Shown one piece after another: positions 3,686-51,689 of a DNA stretch of 64,000 nucleotides; position 1 is the stretch's first letter; every line of letters begins with the position of its first letter. Source of the DNA: Gemmatimonadales bacterium (GTDB lineage: Bacteria > Gemmatimonadota > Gemmatimonadetes > Gemmatimonadales > GWC2-71-9); NCBI GenBank assembly GCA_036395695.1, contig DASWDA010000075.1, positions 13,441 to 77,440 on the forward strand, in the 5' to 3' direction. The notes beneath the pieces are model-generated. The model was not told the origin of the DNA and ran no database searches. It saw only the letters and a program-made list of their open reading frames with translations. A program made the position numbers and the translations under genes.

Positions 3686-5491
3686 ATCGTCGCGATCGGT
3701 TACGTCGACGGCCCGCGGTTTCGGCGTTCGCTGCTGGCAGCCGCGGACTGGGTGGCGGCCGGGCGTGACGAGTTGAATCGCATCAACGTTTTTCCCGTCC
3801 CCGACGGCGACACGGGGACCAACATGTGGCTCACGTTGCGCGCCGTCGCGGCCGCGCTGCGCAACCTCGGCGGTGACGACGGCGACACGGCGCTGCCCCT
3901 CCCCTACGTCGCCGAAACGATGGCCCAGGCCAGCGTGCGGGGCGCCCGCGGCAACTCCGGCATGATGCTGTCACAGTTCCTGCTCGGCTTCCGCGAAGGC
4001 ATCGGCCAGCGGTTGCGTGCCGACGCCCGCGGGCTGGCTGCGGCGATCGGTCTCGGCTTCGAGCGGCTGCAGGCATCGCTCGACGACCCCATTGAAGGCA
4101 CCATCCTGACCGTCGTCCGCGAAGCAGCGGAGGAAGCCGGACGCGCGCGCGGCGAGTCCGACCTCCGGGTCTTCATGAGCCGCATCGTGAACCGGGCGGA
4201 GGCCGCGCTCCAGCGCACACCCGAGCTACTGGCTGCCCTGAAGAGCGCCGGGGTGGTCGACGCCGGCGCGAAAGGGTTTGTCCGCCTGCTCGAGGGCGTG
4301 AAGCGGCTTATAGAAGAAGGTCACATCGCCCAGGGTGCGGTCGACCGCATGAGCACCGCAACGAGCGCCGCCGCACAAACCGAGGTCGAAGCCGACCGTG
4401 ACTACCGCTACTGCACCGAGTTGATGGTCCGCTCGCCGAGCCTCCCCGACCCCGCCGTCGTGCGCAAGGCGTTGCGCCCGCACGGCGGCTCGATCGTCGT
4501 GCTTGCCACGGGCGACCTGCTCAAAGCTCACGTGCACACCGACGCGCCCGACGACGTCTTCACGCTCGCCAACAGCTGGGGCACGCTGGAGTCGACCAAA
4601 GCCGACGACATGCGCGCCCAGCATCAGGCGCTGCAAGCCCGCCGACCCATCGCGTTCGTGAGCGATACCGCGTGCGACTTGCCGGACGAGCTGGTGCTGC
4701 AGTACGACATCGGGCTGGTTCCGCTGCAGCTCATCGTCGCCGAACGCTCGTATCGCGACCGCCTCGAGCTGACCGCCGCGGAGTTCTTCCGCCGCATGCG
4801 CGCCGGCCTCGACGCCAGTACGTCGCAACCTGCGCCACAGGCGTTCACGGACGCCTACCAGGACGCCGCACGCGGTGCAGACCGAGTCATCGCCGTCATC
4901 GTGTCCAGCGCGCTCTCAGGCACCCACGGCAACGCCGACGCGGCCGCCCGGCGCTTCGACACCAGTCGCGTGACCGTCGTCGACAGCCGGAGCGCCTCGC
5001 TCGGCGAAGGCCTGCTGGTGATCCGTGGCGTCGAGCTCGCCGCGGCCGGCTGGCAGGCGGACGCCATCGTGCGGGAGCTCGAGCGCGTGCGGAGTCACTC
5101 GGGCGGGTTATTTACGGTGGACAACTTCGAGCGCCTGGTACGCTCAGGCCGGCTGGGGCGGGGTCGGGCGTGGCTCGGCACCAAGCTCAATCTGAAGCCG
5201 GTGATGGCGCTTACTATGGAAGGGAGAATCGAGCCTGTCGGCCGGGTGCGCGGCCGGGATGCCGCGCGCCGCCGCATCCTCGAGCTGCTCGATCACGCGC
5301 TGACACCGCGCCCGCGCGCCCTCCGTCTGGGCGTTGCGCATGGAGACATCCCTGAGTTTGCCGAAGCGTTGCGCGTCGAGCTCGTGGCGCGCTACCGGCC
5401 GATGCAGTGTCTGGTGACGCCAATCACACCGGTAATCGCCGCACACGCCGGAATTGGAGCGTGGGGCGTGTTCTATCAGAATGAAGACTGA
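3686..5491 (+). CDS. DAK2 (DhaL/FakA-like) domain fused to a DegV (FakB-like) fatty-acid-binding domain
   Basis: The N-terminal half has NVFPVPDGDTGTNM and ...YCTELMV...GGSIVVLATGDLLKAHVHTD, as in the YloV/FakA N-terminal and middle domains. The C-terminal half has IAFVSDTACDLP...STSQPAPQAF...IVSSALSGTHGNA...VVDSRSASLGEG, as in DegV. The first canonical start is GTG 3752, but YloV-like sequence (IGYVDGPRFRRSLLAAADWV) continues upstream to about 3686. Confidence 0.8.
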   Translation: MVAIGYVDGPRFRRSLLAAADWVAAGRDELNRINVFPVPDGDTGTNMWLTLRAVAAALRNLGGDDGDTALPLPYVAETMAQASVRGARGNSGMMLSQFLLGFREGIGQRLRADARGLAAAIGLGFERLQASLDDPIEGTILTVVREAAEEAGRARGESDLRVFMSRIVNRAEAALQRTPELLAALKSAGVVDAGAKGFVRLLEGVKRLIEEGHIAQGAVDRMSTATSAAAQTEVEADRDYRYCTELMVRSPSLPDPAVVRKALRPHGGSIVVLATGDLLKAHVHTDAPDDVFTLANSWGTLESTKADDMRAQHQALQARRPIAFVSDTACDLPDELVLQYDIGLVPLQLIVAERSYRDRLELTAAEFFRRMRAGLDASTSQPAPQAFTDAYQDAARGADRVIAVIVSSALSGTHGNADAAARRFDTSRVTVVDSRSASLGEGLLVIRGVELAAAGWQADAIVRELERVRSHSGGLFTVDNFERLVRSGRLGRGRAWLGTKLNLKPVMALTMEGRIEPVGRVRGRDAARRRILELLDHALTPRPRALRLGVAHGDIPEFAEALRVELVARYRPMQCLVTPITPVIAAHAGIGAWGVFYQNED

Positions 5492-5834
5492 TCTCACACA
5501 CGTCCTAGACGCATTGGTGGACCGCAAGGCGGTCGATCCGGTAGTTTTGGACTTACGTGGCCTGTCGGGCGCGACCGATTATTTCGTGATCGTGTCGGGG
5601 ACCTCGGCCGCGCACGTGCGCGGGATGGCGGATCACCTCGTGACGGCACTCGCGCCGCGGGGCTTGAAGCCCCATCATGTGGAAGGGCTGGCGCAGGGCC
5701 GGTGGGTGTTGCTCGACTATGTGGATTTCGTCGTGCACGTCTTTCACCCGGAGCTGCGCGAGTTTTACCAGCTCGAGCGGCTGTGGGGCGACGCTCCTGT
5801 CGTCGCCGCGGGCGATGACGGAGGCTCGAAATGA
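5481..5834 (+). CDS. rsfS: Ribosome silencing factor RsfS (iojap family)
   Basis: ATDYFVIVSGTSAAHVRGMADHL...WVLLDYVDFVVHVFHPELREFYQLERLWGDA matches RsfS. Confidence 0.9.
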   Translation: MKTDLTHVLDALVDRKAVDPVVLDLRGLSGATDYFVIVSGTSAAHVRGMADHLVTALAPRGLKPHHVEGLAQGRWVLLDYVDFVVHVFHPELREFYQLERLWGDAPVVAAGDDGGSK

Positions 5835-8800
5835 CTCGTGTGGCGGTGTTTGCGGCGTTCCTCGTGCTTACGGCACAACCGCTGGCTGCGCAGTACTTCG
5901 GCCAGAACAAGGTGCAGTACAAGAACTTCCACTTCCAATCGATTCAGACCGAACACTTCGACATCTACTATTATCCCGATGAGCGGGGCGGCGCGCTCGA
6001 CGCGGCACGCATGGCGGAGCGCGCGTATGCGCGTCTGTCGCGCATCCTCCATCACCAGTTCCAGAGCCGCAAGCCGATCATCCTGTACGCCTCGCAGTCC
6101 GATTTCCAGCAGACGAACGTCGTCGACGCCACGGGTGAGGGACTGGGCGGTGTCACGGAGTTCTTCAAACACCGTGCGGTGCTGCCGTTCACCGGCTCGT
6201 ACGCCGAGTTCGAGCACGTGCTCCAGCACGAGATGGTCCACCAGTTCCAGTACGACGTCTACAGCCGCGGCCACGCGGGCGCCGGCGTGCAGACGCTGGT
6301 TGCCGTCAATCCGCCGCTCTGGTTTATGGAAGGGATGGCCGAGTACCTGTCGCTCGGGCCGATCAACACGGAGACGGCGATGTGGCTGCGCGACGCGGCC
6401 CTCGAGGGCCACCTCCCCTCGATCGAGGAAATGACGTCCGATCCCTACATCTTCCCCTACCGGTACGGCCACGCGCTGTGGGCGTACATCGGCGAGAAGT
6501 GGGGCGACGAGGTGATCGGCGAGATTCTGCAGAGCTCCGCTACGTCGGGGCTCGATGCGGCATTCAAGCGCGCGCTGGGCCGGTCGCTCGAGGATCTCTC
6601 GAACGACTGGCGCGACGCCATTCAGACGACATTCCTGCCGCAGCTCGGCGATCACTATCGCGCCCGGCGGATCGCGGAGCCGACGCTGACCGAGCGGCGC
6701 TCGCACGGGCGGATTTTCCTCGCCCCCGCGCTCACACCGGACGGGAAGACCCTGGCGTTCTTCGGCGATGAAGGCGGGTTCTTCGTCGATCTGTGGCTCG
6801 CGGATGCCGAGACCGGGCGCGTCCGGCAGCGGCTCGTGAAATCGACGCAAAACAGCAACTACGAGAGCCTGCGCTTCATCAATTCGGCGGGCGCGTTCTC
6901 TCCCGACGGCCGCTCCTTCGCGATCGCCGCCAAGCGGAAAGACCGCGACGATCTCGTCATTCTCGACGTGAAACGGGGCCGCGAAGAGCGGCGCATCCAC
7001 GTGGGCCTGAGCGGGCTGCAGACACCGCAGTGGTCGCCCGACGGGCAGCAGCTCGTCTTCACCGGCTTCCGCAACGGCTTCACGGACCTGTACATCATCA
7101 ACCGCGACGGCACCGGCCTGCGGCGGTTGACCGATGACAAGGACGCCGATCTGCATCCGTCGTGGTCGCCCGACGGCAAGACGATCGCGTTCGTCACCGA
7201 CCGGGGCGGCGAGACCGATTTCGATCTGCTGCGGTTCGGGAATCTGCGAATCGCCCTGCTCCACCTGGACAGCGGCGCCATCGAGGTCCTCGGCAACATG
7301 GGGACCGGCAAGAACATCAACCCGGTGTGGGCGCCCGATGGCCGGTCGCTGGCGTTCGTGTCCGACCGCACCGGCATCAGCAACGTGTTCTTGTACGAAT
7401 TCGACGACGGCCAGATCTATCAGCTCACGAATCTGTTCACCGGCGTGCAGGGCATCACGCCCCTGTCGCCCGTGCTCACCTGGGCGCCGCAGGCAGACCG
7501 CATGGCGTTCGTGTATTACGAGGACGGCCAGTACAGCGTGTACTCGGTGGAGAATCCACGCTCGCTGCGCCGCGCGCCCTATCATGGACCCGCGTCGCAG
7601 CCGGTCGTGACGCTGCTCGAGGCGGAAGGGCGAGACACGTTACTCAAGGCGCCGCCGCCAGTCGCGCTGGGGGGAACGGGCACCGCGACGAGTCTGCCGC
7701 GCCTGCCCGCGCCGGCGTCCATCTATCGGTCGGCAGCGGGATTCCGCCCCTCCGCGCTGCCGCCGCAGGCCGAAGCAGCCGCGACGCCGCCCCCCGTGAC
7801 GGTGCGCGGGCTCCTCGACTCCGCCACGCTCGCGTTGCCCGACACGAACGAGTTCACCTTCAAGCCGTACAAGGTGCGATTCACGGCCGACTACGTGGTG
7901 CGTCCGACAATCGGCTACGAGCGGGACAATTTTGGCCGCGGCGTGTTCGGCGGTACGGCGATCGCGCTGTCCGACATCCTCGGCAATCATTCCGTCGTGA
8001 TCGCCGGGTCGGTGAACGGCCGCATCGGCGAAGCGCAATTCCTCGGGGTGTACGTCAATCAGACCCATCGGCTGAATTGGGCCGGCGGCTTCTCACAGGA
8101 TCCGCTGTATTTCTACGGCGGCAGCGACTGGACACGGACCGCCGATACGCGGCAGCCCGGCGACAGCCTCGACGTCTTCACGACGCGGATCCGGCGCTTT
8201 GTCGTGCGAGACCTGTTCACCGAGTCGTCCTATCCGTTCAGCCGTTTCAATCGCGTCGAGCTGGGCCTGCACGCCGTCAACATTGCCGAAGCGACCCTGG
8301 CTCTCCAGACGTCGTACAACGCGACCACCGGAGGGTTGGTCGGCCAGCAGCTCGTGCAGGGCGGCGGCCCGTCGGCGACGTATGTGCAACCGTCGATCGC
8401 GCACGTGCACGACAACACGCTGTTCGGGTACGTCGGCCCATTCGCCGGCGCGCGCTCGCGGCTGTCCATCGCGCCGGCATTCGGCAGTTGGCGCTTCACG
8501 GCGGGCCTGGTCGACTACCGGCGCTACATCTTTGTCCGGCCGTTCACGCTCGCCGTGCGCAGCGTGATGTTCGGCCGCTTTGGACGCGATGCCGACCACT
8601 TTCCCGTCTTCCTCGGCAGCACCGACCTGATTCGCGGCTACACCTCCGGCTCGTTCCGGAGCCACGAGTGTGCCGCCGCCACACAGCAAACCTCGCAAAC
8701 GGGATGCGCCGAGCTCGATCAGTTGATCGGCTCGAAGATCGCGGTCGGCAACGTGGAATTGAGATTCCCGCTGACACGCAACCTCGTGCTGGGCTTTCTT

Positions 8801-9055
8801 CCGGTGGGCTTCCCGCCGATCGAAGGCGCGATCTTCTACGACATCGGAATGGCGTGGGACGATGCGAGCACCGTCAAATGGAACCGCGCTGCGACCGACG
8901 ACCCTGTACTCGTTCGCCAGCCGCTGCGCAGCTGGGGAACGTCGATCCGCGCCAACGTCTTCGGTCTGCTCATCATGCGGTTCGACTACACCCGGCCACT
9001 CGATCGGCCGCTGAAACGGTCGTATTGGACCATCAGTTTAGGTCCGACGTTCTAA
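5831..9055 (+). CDS. Outer-membrane protein: signal peptide, HExxH peptidase-MA-like domain, PD40/TolB-like beta-propeller and Omp85 (surface antigen D15) barrel
   Basis: The signal peptide is MTRVAVFAAFLVLTAQPLAAQ. The HExxH region reads HVLQHEMVHQFQ ... WFMEGMAEY. Repeated PD40 signatures are FSPDGRSFA, WSPDGQQLVF, WSPDGKTIAF, WAPDGRSLAF. The C-terminus LIRGYTSGSF...VGNVELRFPL...EGAIFYDIGMAW...WTISLGPTF ends in Phe like an OMP. An ATGA overlap joins it to rsfS. Confidence 0.75.
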   Translation: MTRVAVFAAFLVLTAQPLAAQYFGQNKVQYKNFHFQSIQTEHFDIYYYPDERGGALDAARMAERAYARLSRILHHQFQSRKPIILYASQSDFQQTNVVDATGEGLGGVTEFFKHRAVLPFTGSYAEFEHVLQHEMVHQFQYDVYSRGHAGAGVQTLVAVNPPLWFMEGMAEYLSLGPINTETAMWLRDAALEGHLPSIEEMTSDPYIFPYRYGHALWAYIGEKWGDEVIGEILQSSATSGLDAAFKRALGRSLEDLSNDWRDAIQTTFLPQLGDHYRARRIAEPTLTERRSHGRIFLAPALTPDGKTLAFFGDEGGFFVDLWLADAETGRVRQRLVKSTQNSNYESLRFINSAGAFSPDGRSFAIAAKRKDRDDLVILDVKRGREERRIHVGLSGLQTPQWSPDGQQLVFTGFRNGFTDLYIINRDGTGLRRLTDDKDADLHPSWSPDGKTIAFVTDRGGETDFDLLRFGNLRIALLHLDSGAIEVLGNMGTGKNINPVWAPDGRSLAFVSDRTGISNVFLYEFDDGQIYQLTNLFTGVQGITPLSPVLTWAPQADRMAFVYYEDGQYSVYSVENPRSLRRAPYHGPASQPVVTLLEAEGRDTLLKAPPPVALGGTGTATSLPRLPAPASIYRSAAGFRPSALPPQAEAAATPPPVTVRGLLDSATLALPDTNEFTFKPYKVRFTADYVVRPTIGYERDNFGRGVFGGTAIALSDILGNHSVVIAGSVNGRIGEAQFLGVYVNQTHRLNWAGGFSQDPLYFYGGSDWTRTADTRQPGDSLDVFTTRIRRFVVRDLFTESSYPFSRFNRVELGLHAVNIAEATLALQTSYNATTGGLVGQQLVQGGGPSATYVQPSIAHVHDNTLFGYVGPFAGARSRLSIAPAFGSWRFTAGLVDYRRYIFVRPFTLAVRSVMFGRFGRDADHFPVFLGSTDLIRGYTSGSFRSHECAAATQQTSQTGCAELDQLIGSKIAVGNVELRFPLTRNLVLGFLPVGFPPIEGAIFYDIGMAWDDASTVKWNRAATDDPVLVRQPLRSWGTSIRANVFGLLIMRFDYTRPLDRPLKRSYWTISLGPTF

Positions 9056-9078
9056 CTCCGCTTCGCCAAAACAGTTGC

Positions 9079-9119
9079 AATGGCCTCGCCGGTTGTCTAT
9101 TTTGTCCGGCGAGGCCATT
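9079..9119 (+). terminator. Perfect 14-bp GC-rich hairpin 24 nt after the OMP stop codon; either a terminator or a start-site-sequestering structure
   Basis: The structure is AATGGCCTCGCCGG, a 13-nt loop TTGTCTATTTTGT, then CCGGCGAGGCCATT. Only a weak T tract follows. Both candidate starts of the next gene (ATG 9080, TTG 9119) lie inside the arms. Confidence 0.45.
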
Positions 9120-10504
9120 TGCCGAACTCTCGCTTCCTTCTCCTGTCGATGATCACGCTTTGGGGTTGTGGACCCAAAGCGCCGGCGGCTGGATCGTCAC
9201 AACAACAAACACCGCAACGTGTTAGCGAACTCCAGATCCTCGCGCGCTCGCCCGGCGTCGCGATCAGGCTGCCTGCCAAAGGCGGGACGCCGCAGCTCTA
9301 CCGCCTTCCCCGGCTTACGGCCGTCGAGGGGGTGCTGAAGGGCAAACTGCCCCCCGTGGAGCGCGTCATAGGGCTCGATCCGGAATCCGAGTTTCTGTTT
9401 GTCACGACGGCCAAGCATGAGCTGCTCGCGCTCGATCTCGGCAGCGGTCGCGTGGATACCGTCGGCACCACGATCCGGCAGGCCGCCCTCGGCCCGGACG
9501 GCACGCTCTACGCCGTGGATTCGTCCCGGCGCGTCATCTCGCTCTCGCGCCGCACCCGCTTCACCTGGCCCCAGGCGCTGACGGCGCTCCCGCGCGAGCT
9601 GTTTGGCGCGACGGATCAGCATCTCGTCGGCGTGATCCCGCAAGACAAACTGTTGATCGCCGCGGCCGATCAGCCGCCGACCGTGCGGACGATCGCCGCG
9701 GGCGGTGACGTGGCGGCGACACGCTGGGGCGATCTCGTGGCGGTCGCGAGTGATTCGGGCATCACCTTCTATGATCCACTCGGCCGCCGCGACCCGTCGT
9801 TCGTGAAACTGGCCGATGCCCCGCGCGCGCTCGCCTTCTCGCCATCGGGCCATCGCATTTATGTCGCGCGGCGCAATGTGCCCGGTCTCGCGGTCGTCGA
9901 CCGCTACGAGCGCACGGAGCTCGACGGCGTCGCGCTCCCCGGTCCCGTCGCCGCGCTGCGCCTCGACCCGCTCGGCCGCTGGCTGCTCGCTCGTCCGGCC
10001 GTGGGGGACTCGGCGTGGATCGTCGATCTGCCGATCAAGCGCCACACCGGCATCGTGCCCACCCAATGGCAGTCCGACTTGCCGTCGATCTCTCCCGACG
10101 GGATGCTGATCTACCGGCGCGGGAAAGACGTCGTCTCGGCACGACCCGACTCGCTGAACGACCATGGGAAGGTCACAAACGGCGCGGCCGATATCTGGGT
10201 GCTGACGTCGTGGCTGCCGCGCGGTGTACCCGCGAGCACGGTGAGTGCGGCGAGCTCGGACAGTTCGGGCACGGGCGCGGAAGGCCCGCTCTACGTCCAG
10301 GTGTCCACGTCGCAGAACTCCGAGTGGTCGGGACATCTCGCTGACGACCTCACGCGCGCCGGTTTGGCCGCGCGCGTGCTGCCACCGCAGCATCCTGATG
10401 ACGGCTATCGCGTCGTGCTCGGTCCCTACGCAACGCGCGAGCAGGCTGAGGCCACGGGCCGGCGGCTGGGCCGGCCATTCTGGATCTACCAACCGGGACA
10501 GTGA
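9119..10504 (+). CDS. Lipoprotein with a beta-propeller-like central region and a C-terminal SPOR domain
   Basis: From TTG 9119 the N-terminus reads (M)PNSRFLLLSMITLWGC, a lipobox-type signal; ATG 9080 is the alternative start. The C-terminus YVQVSTSQNSEWSGHLADDLTRAGLAARVLPP...YRVVLGPYATREQAEATGRRLG is SPOR-like. Confidence 0.65.
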   Translation: MPNSRFLLLSMITLWGCGPKAPAAGSSQQQTPQRVSELQILARSPGVAIRLPAKGGTPQLYRLPRLTAVEGVLKGKLPPVERVIGLDPESEFLFVTTAKHELLALDLGSGRVDTVGTTIRQAALGPDGTLYAVDSSRRVISLSRRTRFTWPQALTALPRELFGATDQHLVGVIPQDKLLIAAADQPPTVRTIAAGGDVAATRWGDLVAVASDSGITFYDPLGRRDPSFVKLADAPRALAFSPSGHRIYVARRNVPGLAVVDRYERTELDGVALPGPVAALRLDPLGRWLLARPAVGDSAWIVDLPIKRHTGIVPTQWQSDLPSISPDGMLIYRRGKDVVSARPDSLNDHGKVTNGAADIWVLTSWLPRGVPASTVSAASSDSSGTGAEGPLYVQVSTSQNSEWSGHLADDLTRAGLAARVLPPQHPDDGYRVVLGPYATREQAEATGRRLGRPFWIYQPGQ

Positions 10505-11772
10505 CCACCGTCCGGCAGCTGCCGCTCTCGCGGCTCGGGCATCTGGTTCCGCCGCTCCTTGACGGCGCGGCGCTGGTCGGCCTGATGCCCGTCGGCAGCG
10601 ATCCGCAGTGGGCGGCAAAGGCCGCATGGGACATCGCGCGCATCGCCGCGCGCGACGGGCGGCGCGTCGCACTCGTCGACCTGTGCCTCGAGAATCCTGC
10701 ACTCCACGAAACCGTGGGGCTCCAGGCCACCGAAGGCATCGTCGACGCGTTCGAATACGGCGTTTCGCTGAACAAGGCGGCGCATGAAGTGACCGGCGTC
10801 TTCATTATTCCCGCGGGCTCTGAGACTGCGCATCCCGCGGAGGTCTACGCCCATGCGCGGTGGCGGAAGCTGCAAGCCGGATTCCGCTCCGAAGGCGCGC
10901 TCCTGCTGGCGCTCATACCACGCGCCGGACTGGCGCAGCTCTCGGCAGATCCGGACGGCGTGTTCGTCCTCGCCCCGGAAGGTGTGAGTCCCGCGTTTGC
11001 GCTGGGACGGGATGTGCCGCTGCTCGGCGTCGTCCGCGATCGGTGGTTGCCGTCGAATGGGAGCGCACGCGTATCACCGCTGCCCCGAACAATGCCGGTC
11101 GAGGAGACACCGCGGCGTGGGCTGCGGGTCGCGCTGGCCGCGCTGATCGTAGCGGGACTCGCCGTGGGAGGATGGGCACTGCTGGCGCGAGCGCGCGAGG
11201 CGCTCATCGCGCCCCCGCCGGCTAGTCCGCCGACGGCCACTCCTCCGCCTGCTCCCACGGCTCCCCCGTCCTCGACAACATCCACCAACCTCCACCAACC
11301 GCCACCGGCACCCGCAGTTCGCGTCGACACGTTGGGGTGGACCATTCAGCTCGCCGCGTACGCCTCACTCGACAAGGCGCTGGCGCACGCTGACCGGCTC
11401 GCGGCCGACGCGGGCGTGCCGGCCCTCGTCACGCCGGTGCCGCAGAGCGGCAGTGGCCCCGTCTGGTATCGCGTGCTCGCCGGCTCCTACGCCACGCGCG
11501 CGGACGCCGGCACCGCCCGAGCGGGGATGTGGCGCCGCGGTGTCGCCGCCGAGGGCGTAGGCGACATATTGCTGGCCCCCTATTCCTACCACGCGCCGAC
11601 CGGCGCGACGGTCGATATGCTGCGGCGCCGCGGCCTGCCCGCGGTGCGCTGGTCCAATGGGGTGATTTTGCTGGGCGCGTTCGAAGCACCTGAGCAGGCC
11701 GCATTCACGCAGGCCGCACTCAAGCGCGCCGGCGTGCGCGCGAACCTCCTCCCTCGCATGGGGACACCATGA
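10501..11772 (+). CDS. Bitopic membrane protein: degenerate BY-kinase/MinD-like P-loop fold, TM helix, Pro-rich linker and SPOR domain(s)
   Basis: The N-terminal ~175 aa align by eye to the CpsD/MinD fold (RVALVDLCLENPALHETVGL...GIVDAF...VFIIPAGS), but GSDPQW replaces Walker A G-x-GK[ST]. The TM helix is LRVALAALIVAGLAVGGWALLA, followed by a PPPASPPTATPPPAPTAPP linker. The SPOR region is WTIQLAAYASLDKALAHADRL...WYRVLAGSYATRADA. GTGA and ATGA overlaps join it to both neighbours. Confidence 0.6.
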   Translation: MTTVRQLPLSRLGHLVPPLLDGAALVGLMPVGSDPQWAAKAAWDIARIAARDGRRVALVDLCLENPALHETVGLQATEGIVDAFEYGVSLNKAAHEVTGVFIIPAGSETAHPAEVYAHARWRKLQAGFRSEGALLLALIPRAGLAQLSADPDGVFVLAPEGVSPAFALGRDVPLLGVVRDRWLPSNGSARVSPLPRTMPVEETPRRGLRVALAALIVAGLAVGGWALLARAREALIAPPPASPPTATPPPAPTAPPSSTTSTNLHQPPPAPAVRVDTLGWTIQLAAYASLDKALAHADRLAADAGVPALVTPVPQSGSGPVWYRVLAGSYATRADAGTARAGMWRRGVAAEGVGDILLAPYSYHAPTGATVDMLRRRGLPAVRWSNGVILLGAFEAPEQAAFTQAALKRAGVRANLLPRMGTP

Positions 11773-14700
11773 GACTGAGCAGGCTCGAGCTCTCTGGATT
11801 CAAATCATTTGCGGGCGCGGTGGAGCTGCCGTTCGATCAAGGCGTCACCGCGATCGTCGGGCCGAACGGCTGCGGCAAGTCGAACATCTCGGACGCGGTG
11901 CGCTGGGTGCTCGGCGAACAGTCGCCGCGCCTCTTGCGCGGTGGAAAAATGGAAGACGTGATCTTTCAGGGATCCACCGGCCGCCGGCCCGTGAACGTCG
12001 CCGAGGTCTCTCTCGTCTTCGATAACTCCGACGGTAGTCTCCCCGTCGCGTATCAAGAGGTCGTCGTCACCCGGCGGCTGTCGCGCTCGGGACAAAGCGA
12101 CTACCTGCTGAATCGCTCGCCGGTGCGGCTGCGCGACATCCAGGACATGCTGAGTGGCACCGGCCTGGGTGCCGACGCCGCCGTCGTCATGGAAGCGAAG
12201 ATGATCGAAGCGCTATTGTCCGAGAAAGCCGAGGAGCGGCGGGGGCTCTTCGAGGAGGCGGCAGGAATCGGACTGTATCGCAACCGCAAAGAGAGCACCG
12301 AGCGGCGGCTCGAGGAGACGGCCGCCGATCTGGCGCGGCTCGAGGACCTCATCGCCGAGGTGCAGACGCAAGTCCGCAGTCTCGCGCGCCAGCGCGGCCG
12401 CGCCGAGCGCTACGGCAAAATGATCGAAGAGCGCTTTGGCGTCGCGATGACGCTGGTGCGGCGCGAGATCGAGGACTTCGACCTCTCCCTCGGCGCGCTC
12501 GGCGTCCGAGCCCGCGAGCTGGCCGAGCAGCTCCCCGCCGCACGGGCCCGGCTCGAGGATGCGGAGCACCAGCGCGAAGTCCGCGTGCAGGCGAGGCATA
12601 CGGCGGAAGCGCGGCGCACCGAAGTCGAACGCCGGCTGGGTGACGCCCGGCTCGAGGTCGGGCGGCTCGAGAGTGATCTCGCGCTCGCCGCCGAGCGGCT
12701 CGGCAACGCCGGGCAGCGGCGCCAGACCGCGGCGGATGAGCGCGTCCAAGCCGAGCGGCGCGCCGCGCAGGCGGAACGCGAGCATGCGGCGGCCGCCGCC
12801 GAGCGCACGGGCGCCGAGCGCGACCTCGCCGCCGTGCAGCGTGAGCTCGGCGCGCGGACCGGCGACGAAGACAGCGTCCGGGGCCGGCTGACGGCGGAGC
12901 GGCAGGCGGTGCGTGAGCTCGAGGAAGGACTGCAAGGACGCGCGGAGGCGGCGCGCGCGCTCGAGATCGAAAGCGGCGCATTGGACCGCGAGCGCAGCGA
13001 GTTGCGCGAGCAGCTGGCGCTGGCAACCGCCGAGCGCCAGGACCGCGATGCCGCGGCCCATGACGCGGCGCGCGACGCCGAGACTGCCGCACAGCGCGTC
13101 CACCACGGTGCGCAAGGCGCGCTCAGAGCGGTGGAGGCCCTCCAGCACGCGCGGCGGCACGTCGCCACGCTCCACGAACAAGAGATGAGCGCGCGCTCGG
13201 CCCGGCGTCAAGCGGAGGCCGCGCTGGCGCAGCTCGAGGCCCGGCGCGACGCCCTCGGCGAGCTCGACCGCGAGCACGTCGGCCTCGCGCCCGCGGCGCA
13301 GACGTTGCTGAAGGCCAAGAGGCAATTCGGCGACGGGACGGTGCTCGGTCCGCTCGCCGATTTCGTCCGCACGAGCCGGCGCGATGCCGAGCTGGCGGAG
13401 CGGTTGTTGGGCGAATGGCTCCACGCGGTGCTGGTGCGCGACGCGTCGGTGATCGACGCGATCACGGCCTGGCACGCCGAGACACAACCGGGCCCCCTCG
13501 TCCTGCTGCCGTGCGTTCCGGGCCCCCGGCTCGGCGCCGACGGCCATCCGCTCAAGGACGAGCTGCGAGTGGATGGACCTGCCGCCGCGTGGGTCCACGC
13601 GTTGCTCGCGGGACACGAGGTCATCGGTGCAGGGTCGCTGCGGCGCGCCAATGGCGCGGTGTTCCTCGACAGCAGCGCCCGTGCCGCCGGACCGCTACAG
13701 CGCCGTGCCGAGCTGGAAGCGCTCGAGAAAGATGTGCGGGAGGCGACGAAGAATCTCGATCGCGCGCGCGCCGCCGAAGAGTCCACGCTGAAAGAGCTCA
13801 CGGCCGCGGAAACGGCGCTCACGGCCGCCGGGAATGGGGCCGAGCAGGCACGCCGCGTAGAGCTCGAGGCCGGCGCGGAGAAGGGCGAAGCGGACCGCGG
13901 GCTGATTCACGCGCGCCGCCAGGCCGAGGAATCGGCCGCGCAGGTGGAGCGCCTCACCAAGCGGCTCGCCGAGGTCGAGCTGCGGGTTGGCGCGGTCCAC
14001 GTCGAGCTGCAGGAGCGCGAGGTCGAGCGGCTCCGCTCGGCGGAGGAGCTGGGCGCCGAGCGCGCCGGCTTGGCCGATCTCGAGGCGCAGCAGGAGGCCG
14101 CGCGCGAGCAGCGCGTCCGCTGGCAGGTCGAAGCCGCCCAGGTGGAAGCCCGTCTCGCCGCAGCCTCCGAGCGCGCCACGCGCGCCGACACCGACGCCAA
14201 GGCGTCGCGCGAGCAGGCCGGCGCGCGGGCGGAGGAGATCGCGCGCATCGAGCACGAGACCGGGACACTCACCACACAGCGTGCGCAGTGGCAGGACGCG
14301 CTCCAGGAACGCCGCGTTGCATTGACCGAGCTGGAAACGGCCGCCACGGACGCCGAAGCCCAGGTGGGCATGACTGACGCCGACCTCGGCCAGGCGGAAG
14401 GCGCGCTCGATCAGGCGCGCAAGGCGCTCGCCGCTCTGGGCGAGGAGGAGCACCGGCTCCAGCTCCAGCGCACGGAAGCCGAAGGCCGCAAGCGCGGACT
14501 CGTCGAGCGCGTGGAAACCGAGTGGCGCAAGCCGCTCGACCAGCTCCTGGTCGACGCGCCGGAGGTCGCCGGCGACCTCGAGTGGTTACGGCAGGAGAAC
14601 GACCGGCTGCGCGGCGCGATCGACGCCGTCGGCCCCGTGAACGCGCTCGCCGTCGAGGAGCACGCCGAGGAAACGAAGCGGCTCGAGTTCCTGCAAACGC

Positions 14701-15236
14701 AGCGGGACGATCTCGTGACCGCCCGCAACTCGCTGCAGCAGGCCGCGCGGGAGATCGATCAGACCGCGAAGACGCTCTTCTTGGAGTCGTTTGCCAAAGT
14801 ACGAGAACACTTTCGGTCCGTGTTCCAGACGTTGTTCGGCGGCGGCGAATGCGACGTGCGTCTCGCGAATGAGGATGAGCCTCTCGAGAGCGAAATCGAA
14901 ATCCACGCCGCGCCGCGGGGGAAGCGCACGCAGCGAATCCACTTGCTGTCGTCCGGTGAGCGCACCCTGGTCGCCGTGTCGCTGCTGTTCGCGATCTTCC
15001 TCGCCAAGCCGAGCCCATTCTGCCTGCTCGACGAAGTCGACGCGCCGCTCGACGACGCCAATGTCGGGCGCTATGTGCGGCTCCTGGCCGAGTTCAAGGA
15101 CCAGACGCAGTTCATCGTCATCACGCACAACCCACGGACGATGCAGGCGGCTGACGCAGTCTATGGCGTCACCATGCAGGAGCCGGGGGTCTCCACTATC
15201 GTTGGAGTCCGTCTCGGTCAAATGGAACCGGCCTAG
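11769..15236 (+). CDS. smc: Chromosome partition protein Smc
   Basis: MRLSRLELSGFKSFA...IVGPNGCGKSNISDAVRWVLGEQS is the Walker A head. Long coiled coils follow. The C-terminal head has LSSGERTLVAVSLLFAIF...FCLLDEVDAPLDDAN. Confidence 0.95.
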   Translation: MRLSRLELSGFKSFAGAVELPFDQGVTAIVGPNGCGKSNISDAVRWVLGEQSPRLLRGGKMEDVIFQGSTGRRPVNVAEVSLVFDNSDGSLPVAYQEVVVTRRLSRSGQSDYLLNRSPVRLRDIQDMLSGTGLGADAAVVMEAKMIEALLSEKAEERRGLFEEAAGIGLYRNRKESTERRLEETAADLARLEDLIAEVQTQVRSLARQRGRAERYGKMIEERFGVAMTLVRREIEDFDLSLGALGVRARELAEQLPAARARLEDAEHQREVRVQARHTAEARRTEVERRLGDARLEVGRLESDLALAAERLGNAGQRRQTAADERVQAERRAAQAEREHAAAAAERTGAERDLAAVQRELGARTGDEDSVRGRLTAERQAVRELEEGLQGRAEAARALEIESGALDRERSELREQLALATAERQDRDAAAHDAARDAETAAQRVHHGAQGALRAVEALQHARRHVATLHEQEMSARSARRQAEAALAQLEARRDALGELDREHVGLAPAAQTLLKAKRQFGDGTVLGPLADFVRTSRRDAELAERLLGEWLHAVLVRDASVIDAITAWHAETQPGPLVLLPCVPGPRLGADGHPLKDELRVDGPAAAWVHALLAGHEVIGAGSLRRANGAVFLDSSARAAGPLQRRAELEALEKDVREATKNLDRARAAEESTLKELTAAETALTAAGNGAEQARRVELEAGAEKGEADRGLIHARRQAEESAAQVERLTKRLAEVELRVGAVHVELQEREVERLRSAEELGAERAGLADLEAQQEAAREQRVRWQVEAAQVEARLAAASERATRADTDAKASREQAGARAEEIARIEHETGTLTTQRAQWQDALQERRVALTELETAATDAEAQVGMTDADLGQAEGALDQARKALAALGEEEHRLQLQRTEAEGRKRGLVERVETEWRKPLDQLLVDAPEVAGDLEWLRQENDRLRGAIDAVGPVNALAVEEHAEETKRLEFLQTQRDDLVTARNSLQQAAREIDQTAKTLFLESFAKVREHFRSVFQTLFGGGECDVRLANEDEPLESEIEIHAAPRGKRTQRIHLLSSGERTLVAVSLLFAIFLAKPSPFCLLDEVDAPLDDANVGRYVRLLAEFKDQTQFIVITHNPRTMQAADAVYGVTMQEPGVSTIVGVRLGQMEPA

Positions 15237-51563: not shown

Positions 51564-51689
51564 CGGGAAGCGATTCCCTGAAACAATCATCGCCCGGACC
51601 AATAAAGCCGCGGGCGAGTCGCTTTTTAGCACCTTGTTTAACGTGGCGGCAATACGCGGCAAATGACCACGGGTCGACAGTTGTAAGGT

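Follow-up and report, generated by a model that had tools for sequence, protein, structure and literature searches.

The locus described here lies on a 64,000-nucleotide stretch of contig DASWDA010000075.1 (positions 13,441 to 77,440 of the forward strand; assembly GCA_036395695.1) from a Gemmatimonadales bacterium. The whole of this stretch is referred to as the window, and all coordinates are those of the window and, unless stated otherwise, of its forward strand. At 5831..9055 a single gene encodes a protein of 1074 amino acids (aa) in which a gluzincin-type domain, a PD40 propeller and an Omp85 barrel follow one another, as recognised from its ATG start, the list of open reading frames (ORFs), Pfam matches and the reading of motifs. 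An earlier note, made from the letters of the sequence alone, had proposed this three-part architecture, and the motifs it quoted were all located: HEMVH at aa 133–137, MEGMAEY at aa 166–172, LIRGYTSGSF at aa 933, VGNVELRFPL at aa 972, AIFYDIGMAW at aa 1000 and the terminal Phe, in ...GPTF. Judged by its relatives, the ORF is a genuine gene and not a chance reading frame, because the homologs returned by sequence searches numbered in the thousands; one of them, on a Joint Genome Institute (JGI) soil-metagenome contig, was 100% identical and had the same neighbouring genes. An antisense ORF of 606 aa (5765..7585, reverse strand), recorded as wholly within the gene, had nothing to support its coding and was considered a typical shadow-ORF artefact of high GC content (66%).

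The protein begins with a predicted Sec signal peptide (aa 1–20, 5831..5890), MTRVAVFAAFLVLTAQPLAA, which was read from the sequence and is followed by QYFG; the cleavage site was placed between LAA and QYFG. The mature protein would then open with a clan-MA gluzincin-like metallopeptidase domain (aa ~21–285, 5891..6685), which was defined by AlphaFold2 (AF2), Foldseek and Pfam. Conservation was assessed on an alignment of 115 full-length, diverse representatives (31–55% identity) together with the query, making 116 sequences. The HEMVH motif (aa 133–137, 6227..6241), marked out by conservation and lying on a helix (124–145) in the DSSP assignment, would supply the catalytic Glu and the first two of the zinc ligands; the conserved WFMEGMAEY motif (aa 164–172, 6320..6346) lies on a helix at 163–175 and carries E167, the predicted third zinc ligand, giving a spacing of HExxH-x29-E. 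H133, E134, H137, E167 and G168 were kept in all 115 relatives, and W164 (111/116) and E171 (114/116) were near-invariant, as were Y210 and R211. For comparison, the mean top-residue frequency per column in the N-terminal domain was ~54%. A working metallopeptidase is favoured because the catalytic quartet is strictly conserved against this background; the pattern in the alignment indicates selection on catalysis, rather than a decayed binding module, and protease function has very likely been retained. A further conserved motif, GGVTE (aa 106–110, 6146..6160), lies 23–27 residues before HExxH, and in its neighbourhood G107 (114/116), T109 (111/116), E110 (109/116) and R115 (115/116) stood out. 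By its position, in a part of the model where the predicted local distance difference test (pLDDT) is below 50, this is a candidate substrate-binding edge-strand motif.

Profile searches of the query produced weak clan-MA matches in Pfam (BSP, Peptidase_M9 and Peptidase_MA_2, across aa 125–265) and a weak flagellinolysin HExxH match in NCBIfam. When diverse N-terminal domains were scanned singly, BSP and Peptidase_M9 were matched by 19 of 19, DUF6055 by 16 of 19 and Peptidase_MA_2 by 15 of 19 (best E = 1e-8), all of these being zincin-type families; the Peptidase_M9 scores were 16.3–19.9 bits against a cutoff of 26, and Peptidase_MA_2 was likewise under its cutoff. A full-length AF2 model was built on an alignment of 66 sequences that combined close homologs with others of 35–42% identity (mean pLDDT 79.2, predicted template modelling score (pTM) 0.75), and here the N-terminal domain consisted of a small sheet, the HExxH helix (124–145), the E167 helix (163–175) and then a helical sub-domain, which is the zincin layout. 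Foldseek comparison of the full-length model gave TolB, BamA and WD40 matches only, with the N-terminal domain masked, and so a separate model of aa 21–285 was made (pLDDT 79, pTM 0.79). Of its top 50 matches in the PDB, 49 were gluzincin peptidases of the M9, M1 and M61 families, the exception being a TFIID chain (7edx_B). These matches included collagenases ColG, ColH and ColT, the Vibrio and Grimontia collagenases, IRAP, ERAP1, ERAP2, PSA, F3, PepN and M61 enzymes, and the best fold match had a template modelling (TM) score of 0.55–0.56 to ColG/ColH over the whole query. On its predicted structure, therefore, the N-terminal module is a gluzincin of clan MA(E), and both the third ligand (E167, in 115/115 relatives) and the peptidase fold, upon which the earlier note had made its gluzincin-like module depend, were found.

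Membership of the individual gluzincin families was also considered. The domain shares with M9 and M1 enzymes an HExxH motif on one helix with the Glu ligand on the next, and a mixed beta-sheet after which a helical sub-domain comes. The M1 consensus comprises a GxMEN exopeptidase motif, HExxH-x18-E and 'WLNEGFA'; the WxxEGxAxY of the query resembles the last of these, but GGVTE stands in place of GxMEN, the spacing is x29 rather than x18, and there is neither an M1 N-terminal beta-domain nor a C-terminal ERAP domain. M1 membership was rejected on the motif and the spacing. M9 membership was rejected on the Peptidase_M9 scores, which stayed under the cutoff, M9 being nonetheless the nearest fold. 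The x29 spacing is close to, but not the same as, that of the M9 enzymes ColG (x27; ligands H523/H527/E555) and Ghcol (x23; H492/H496/E520; PMC9304777).

The predicted mature N-terminus itself was conserved. The sequence QYFGxNKVQY (5891..5920, aa 21–30) is near-invariant across phyla, with F23, G24 and N26 each at 95% or above and Q21 at 90% or above. This peptide may serve for docking or regulation, for which the TolA box in the disordered N-terminus of TolB offers a parallel. Pyroglutamate N-termini are known from Bacteroidetes-related bacteria as the 'Q-rule', which the leading Gln may follow. The gene of one relative lies three genes away from a glutaminyl cyclase gene.

The second module is a six-repeat PD40 beta-propeller of the TolB/tricorn type (aa ~290–580, 6698..7570), which was identified by Pfam, NCBIfam and PDB comparisons of both sequence and fold. 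Four SPDG/APDG repeats are clear, at aa 357, 402, 446 and 501, and two degenerate repeats lie near 303 and 551; the 'at least four' repeats of the earlier note are thereby accounted for. Pfam placed five PD40 (PF07676) matches on the query (E = 2e-31) together with a DPPIV_N-like propeller match, and the newer precomputed Pfam described the propeller as Tricorn_N plus Tricorn_2nd. Compared with the PDB by sequence, the protein matched solely TolB and other PD40/WD40 propellers, and TolB was also the top match to the full-length model in Foldseek (E = 7e-12). Residues ~283–574 are all-beta in the AF2 model, and the six repeat motifs correspond to six blades, as in TolB. TolB is thus the best match in both sequence and fold, but its N-terminal alpha/beta domain is missing here and the propeller is covalently fused to a peptidase domain and a barrel. 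The TolB profile TIGR02800 was matched at E = 6e-41 over positions 193–361 of 418, which is the propeller only, and the score of 140.6 bits fell short of the cutoff of 343.15; orthology with TolB was rejected on this score and on the absence of the N-terminal TolB domain.

Between propeller and barrel lies a disordered linker rich in Pro and Ala (aa ~588–675, 7592..7855), delimited by pLDDT and composition. Its pLDDT is below 50 at aa 588–628 and 641–650, and its composition is 16% Pro and 17% Ala; according to AF2 and DSSP, the region from aa 588 to 682 is either disordered or forms two short helices. Across the family alignment, the segment from propeller to barrel spans 36–164 aa.

The C-terminal module is a BamA-like Omp85 barrel (aa ~683–1074, 7877..9055) ending in Phe, for which DSSP, a barrel profile, Foldseek and Pfam provided the evidence. 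In the DSSP assignment of the AF2 model, 11 strands from residue 685 are followed by a long loop 6 (918–968, containing RGY) and then by five more strands, the second of which carries FxDxG; the resulting count of 16 treats 836–844 and 848–861 as one bulged strand and refers to a predicted structure, and it agrees with the 16-strand Omp85 barrel on which the earlier note had made its reading depend. A profile of the barrel alone matched only BamA in the PDB (E = 2e-5), with an alignment that reached both C-termini, and Foldseek aligned the full-length model to BamA barrels at E = 3e-9 (TM 0.56–0.60 normalised to barrel-only entries, ~14% identity). The Omp85 hallmarks are retained: in loop 6, R935-G936-Y937 (8633..8641), preceded by I934, represents (V/I)RG(F/Y) and was conserved at R 108/116, G 112/116 and Y 95/116; in predicted strand 13 (997–1009), F1002-x-D1004-x-G1006 (8834..8848) represents (F/G)xDxG and was conserved at F 114/116, D 115/116 and G 104/116. 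E976-x-R978 is conserved as well, and the C-terminal residue is F, W or Y in 114 of 116 sequences. A cysteine pair in loop 6, C947...C959 (8669..8707), is invariant in an alignment of relatives, and in the residue-level alignment to E. coli BamA (4n75) it falls exactly on the pair of cysteines in loop 6 there, an indication that loop 6 has kept a disulfide of the BamA type.

The protein therefore shares with BamA a 16-strand barrel with an aromatic residue at its C-terminus, the loop-6 and strand-13 motifs and the Cys pair in loop 6. However, BamA has five POTRA domains and the Pfam search for POTRA (PF07244) found no match in the 1074-aa protein, as the earlier note had implied for its Omp85 barrel. 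The Pfam Omp85 match (PF01103, 40.1 bits against a gathering threshold of 24) was limited to aa 927–1062, and the NCBIfam Omp85_fam score was 17.1 against a cutoff of 200. A BamA ortholog was rejected on the lack of POTRA and on the Omp85_fam score, the name 'BamA/TamA family' being suitable at the level of the barrel only; the protein is expected to be an accessory paralog and not the essential insertase. No paralog or canonical BamA was found by tblastn elsewhere in the 64-kb window.

Two further systems offer partial parallels. In PlpD and the patatin-like Omp85 proteins (formerly 'type Vd secretion'), an enzyme domain also precedes an Omp85 barrel, and experiment has shown the PlpD enzyme domain to be periplasmic, the Omp85 scaffold having been reused for a new function (PMC11116518). 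PlpD, however, combines a patatin lipase with one POTRA domain, whereas the present protein lacks POTRA and joins a zinc-peptidase-like domain and a propeller to its barrel by a long disordered linker. In tricorn, prolyl oligopeptidase, DPP-IV and other S9 enzymes, a propeller is likewise fused to a peptidase domain, and Pfam describes the propeller of the present protein as Tricorn_N/Tricorn_2nd and DPPIV_N-like; but in those enzymes the peptidase is a C-terminal serine alpha/beta-hydrolase or S41 domain and not an N-terminal zinc gluzincin. The name 'peptidase S9' was rejected for this protein, which has a DPPIV_N propeller match but no Peptidase_S9 match, and whose C-terminus is a beta-barrel.

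The architecture itself is not new, having been catalogued in 2014. Heinz & Lithgow (Front Microbiol 5:370, PMC4104836) recognised ten subfamilies within the Omp85/TpsB superfamily, among them a 'WD40-like' subfamily in which a TolB-like propeller replaces POTRA, an arrangement they likened to a BamA-BamB fusion. Table S2 of that study gives architectures of PF01103 with PF07676 in varying number; Table S3 lists WD40-like members from Caldithrix, Rhodothermus, Sorangium, Anaeromyxobacter, Cloacimonas and others, with three columns of Phyre2 results. The templates are 4k3b or 4c00 for the barrel (score 100), TolB 2w8b or 2ivz for the WD40 domain (score 100) and, as 'best aminopeptidase hit', 1z5h (F3), 4kxd, 4fgm, 3qnf (ERAP1) and 4ar1 (ColH), with scores of ~99 (PMC4104836). 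Among the Foldseek matches of the N-terminal domain in the present analysis were 4ar1, 3qnf and an engineered F3 (3q7j). Query and catalogued members thus agree in having PF07676 repeats and PF01103 without POTRA, and in the same three template sets (BamA/TamA barrel, TolB propeller, aminopeptidase/collagenase); the phyla also overlap, those of the 2014 study including Rhodothermus, Caldithrix and Bacteroidetes and those found here Rhodothermales, Calditrichota and Kapabacteria. Placed by architecture, templates and shared phyla, the 1074-aa protein is a Gemmatimonadota member of the WD40-like Omp85 subfamily. The treatment differs in that the text of PMC4104836 discusses the propeller only, the peptidase module being just a supplementary column, and the term Gemmatimonadota is absent from the text and from four supplementary files. 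Later accounts mention a subfamily with 'divergent WD40 and peptidase domains' (PMC11358297, 2024) and describe the WD40-like subfamily as having 'not been well characterized' and as an 'intriguing target' (PMC11116518). The reservation in the earlier note, that the architecture might be a known family with an assigned function, was thus borne out with respect to the family, but the 2014 catalogue assigns it no function. Relatives are named 'peptidase S9', 'DPP IV N-terminal domain-containing protein' or 'Tol biopolymer transport system component' in RefSeq and GenBank, or 'BamA/TamA family' by NCBI. Each of these database names is partial or wrong, and the first three reflect neither the zinc-peptidase domain nor the barrel.

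The phylogenetic distribution, which the earlier note had left to be checked, proved to be broad. A search of representatives clustered at 50% identity returned 6221 clusters at E ≤1e-30, and more than 100 of the top 150 clusters were full-length proteins of ~950–1130 aa with 31–55% identity. Among GTDB species representatives, two active-site peptide patterns with tblastn confirmation identified at least 585 loci, in several phyla; the best 80 of these came mainly from Gemmatimonadota, with others from Vicinamibacterales/Acidobacteriota, Longimicrobiales and Aminicenantes. A profile search and cluster look-ups added Rhodothermales, Rhodocaloribacter (where RefSeq has 'peptidase S9'), Calditrichota and Kapabacteria/Bacteroidota. 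The family therefore occurs in Gemmatimonadota, Acidobacteriota, Rhodothermota, Calditrichota and Bacteroidota. Some representatives bear N-terminal extensions of ~190–280 aa (1194–1284 aa in total), and others are giants of ~2400 aa with 18–22 matched propeller stretches.

In the window, the gene belongs to a tight, co-directional block (5481..15236) of rsfS, the gene itself, two SPOR-domain genes and smc, with overlaps of 4 nucleotides (nt) at 5831–5834, 10501–10504 and 11769–11772 and a gap of 24 nt at 9056–9079. The ribosome silencing factor gene rsfS (5481..5834) was identified by Pfam RsfS (E = 2e-31) and by a JGI gene call of 106 aa; its start is ambiguous, the choices being ATG at 5481, TTG at 5454 or TTG at 5514, the last of which was the JGI choice. 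Its TGA stop (5832–5834) shares bases with the ATG of the gene (5831–5833), so that the ATGA overlap claimed in the earlier note agrees with both the sequence at 5831–5834 and the Pfam match. The first SPOR-domain protein (474 aa, 9080..10504; Pfam SPOR) begins 24 nt past the stop of the gene and is a conserved neighbour in Gemmatimonadota. Its N-terminus, ...LLLSMITLWGCGPK, is a possible lipoprotein signal with Cys at aa 30, and a long uncharacterised central region lies ahead of the C-terminal SPOR domain. The second SPOR-domain protein (423 aa, 10501..11772; Pfam SPOR, E = 7e-11) overlaps its neighbours by 4 nt at each end, and smc (11769..15236; Pfam SMC_N) is the final gene of the block, both being supported by synteny; two SPOR-domain (septal peptidoglycan-binding) proteins are thus encoded immediately 5' of smc. 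A scan for promoters and terminators around the operon produced nothing that exceeded shuffle expectation.

The order of rsfS, the gene, a SPOR gene (with or without the second) and smc was kept at loci in ~60 Gemmatimonadota species, down to ~40% identity. In 50 of 60 loci, rsfS and the gene either were at most 30 nt apart or could overlap by 4 nt, and an exact 4-nt overlap was possible in 21 of 60. The rsfS, SPOR and smc neighbours were missing at loci of 37–40% identity (in Gemmatimonadota, Acidobacteriota and Aminicenantes), as well as in annotated loci of Rhodothermales, Kapabacteria, Calditrichota and others; for five non-syntenic loci our own ORF calls were too noisy at this GC content and were replaced by annotated contexts. 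On its 5' side, the block continues into rpsF-rpsR-rplI. Because the linkage is lost outside Gemmatimonadota, and because the block runs into ribosomal protein genes, the coupling with rsfS is probably an inherited gene order without functional meaning; as a functional clue it was rejected. The synteny with rsfS in the earlier note thus held across ~60 Gemmatimonadota loci, but not in other phyla or at the loci of 37–40% identity.

Relatives in other lineages shared no partner, but genes of proteases and proteostasis adjoined them repeatedly, in several unrelated lineages. In Calditrichota, the relative is preceded by three HSP20 genes and followed by a DegP-type protease; in another lineage, an M50 protease lies directly upstream of the relative; in a further one, M28 and M14 peptidases occur nearby with glutaminyl cyclase; and in Rhodothermales, PmbA/TldD and a divergent PBP2-RodA adjoin the gene.

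Two other features of the window were recorded. A full-length SAM_alpha (SAM-II, RF00521) riboswitch at 51604..51680 (reverse strand) scored 40.5 bits against a gathering threshold of 36 (E = 1e-5) and was the sole Rfam match at gathering level in the window; the name of the family implies an alphaproteobacterial range, to which Gemmatimonadota, the apparent source of the window, does not belong. A single 579-aa ORF (3752..5491) fuses Dak2 and FakA-like_M domains with a DegV domain; the FakA-type kinase and DegV-type fatty-acid-binding subunits of fatty acid kinase are usually separate proteins.

The analysis establishes the gene and its distribution, the three folds and the conservation of the motifs in active site and barrel, and on this basis a mechanism can be proposed. 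On balance we lean slightly towards an outer-membrane-anchored, periplasm-facing, propeller-gated zinc peptidase that acts in envelope proteolysis. The protein would be exported by Sec and its signal peptide removed, after which the 16-strand barrel would insert in the outer membrane, with the flexible Pro/Ala linker tethering the peptidase-propeller unit on the periplasmic side. Because the Omp85 barrel is even-stranded, the N-terminus would lie in the periplasm, and the same orientation is suggested by all Omp85 proteins studied, including PlpD, so far the one enzyme-Omp85 fusion to have been investigated (PMC11116518). Catalytic activity would depend on the predicted zinc ligands H133, H137 and E167 and on E134 as catalytic base, and is suggested by the invariance of these residues. 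The propeller may select or gate unfolded polypeptide or oligopeptide substrates, as an analogy with those of tricorn, prolyl oligopeptidase, DPP-IV and S9 enzymes suggests. The task most likely performed would be proteolysis in the envelope, where the outer membrane faces inwards, whether for the quality control of proteins or for the processing of peptides; the scattered gene contexts point to envelope proteolysis as the process.

Several observations weigh against this proposal. A sequence profile of the N-terminal domain matched no solved structure or peptidase in the PDB, and for this reason the fold assignment rests on AF2 and Foldseek; the Foldseek E-values for the domain were weak (1e-3 to 0.1), and the putative substrate-binding loop (aa 92–107) and mature N-terminus were modelled at pLDDT below 50. 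No gene neighbour was conserved across phyla in the contexts sampled, so that the evidence from protease contexts is anecdotal, and in the literature searched there was no work on activity, localisation or substrate of any WD40-like Omp85 member. Finally, a barrel that keeps all of the BamA hallmarks may be more than an anchor.

This last point leads to the alternative that the protein is a device for the quality control or assembly of outer-membrane proteins, in which the barrel seam engages nascent or stalled beta-barrels, the propeller serves as a BamB-like scaffold and the protease degrades failures. It would resemble a fusion of BamA with BepA, a BAM-docking M48 protease that has an HExxH motif and a TPR domain. 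The barrel profile matched only BamA, and RGY, FxDxG and the loop-6 Cys pair are conserved beyond the needs of a passive anchor; but the loop-6 and strand-13 motifs are not diagnostic, being conserved also in Omp85 members that do not assemble outer-membrane proteins. The arrangement of three HSP20 genes, the relative and DegP in Calditrichota, and the published idea of a BamA-BamB fusion (PMC4104836), are in its favour; on the other hand, POTRA domains, which handle substrates and partners in BamA/TamA, are lacking, and in none of the contexts sampled was the gene linked to bam, surA, skp or lpt genes. We consider this alternative unlikely. Its most specific form, in which the barrel seam pairs with strands of misfolded substrates and passes them via the propeller to the tethered zinc protease, so that a single polypeptide performs quality control, seems more doubtful again; if true, it would hard-wire roles that E. 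coli splits among BamA, BamB and BepA/DegP, and the protein would be the first Omp85 member whose function is to degrade rather than to assemble or translocate.

The linker and the septal neighbours allow two other interpretations. A Pro-rich segment of 36–164 aa between passenger-like domains and barrel could be expected of a surface-displayed protease, whose linker would thread the barrel in the manner of an autotransporter and whose peptidase and propeller would digest environmental proteins outside the cell for nutrition. Members do occur in soil and sediment bacteria of the Fibrobacteres-Chlorobi-Bacteroidetes (FCB) group, some beside M28/M14 peptidases, and the nearest folds include secreted M9 collagenases. 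Nevertheless, N-terminal domains of Omp85 proteins have been found only in the periplasm so far, the supposed type Vd passenger of PlpD included (PMC11116518). Moreover, the conserved RGY/FxDxG lock implies that loop 6 occupies the lumen, and a folded six-blade propeller would be hard to export without an energy source; surface display is accordingly thought quite improbable. The least credence was given to a division tether resembling Tol-Pal. Its propeller would bind a partner that is Pal-like or associated with peptidoglycan, while its peptidase would work at the septum, trimming lipoprotein tethers or peptides linked to peptidoglycan. TolB is indeed the best propeller match, the Gemmatimonadota block contains two SPOR proteins and smc in ~60 species genomes, and the Rhodothermales gene adjoins a divergent PBP2-RodA. 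Yet the N-terminal domain of TolB is absent, and TIGR02800 scored 140.6 where the cutoff is 343. Neither the paralogous loci nor those of other phyla have the SPOR/smc synteny, and the block, which also holds ribosomal genes, looks like an inherited housekeeping order. Gluzincins of the M1 and M9 types are not known to act as peptidoglycan peptidases.

No new kind of system is shown by these results; the family is large and inconsistently annotated. Characterised Omp85 proteins assemble or translocate other proteins, the exception being PlpD, which carries a periplasmic enzyme on the same scaffold. To the architecture already catalogued the analysis adds testable points: the catalytic residues of the zinc-peptidase domain are invariant across phyla, the barrel keeps the hallmarks of BamA and the family is very large.

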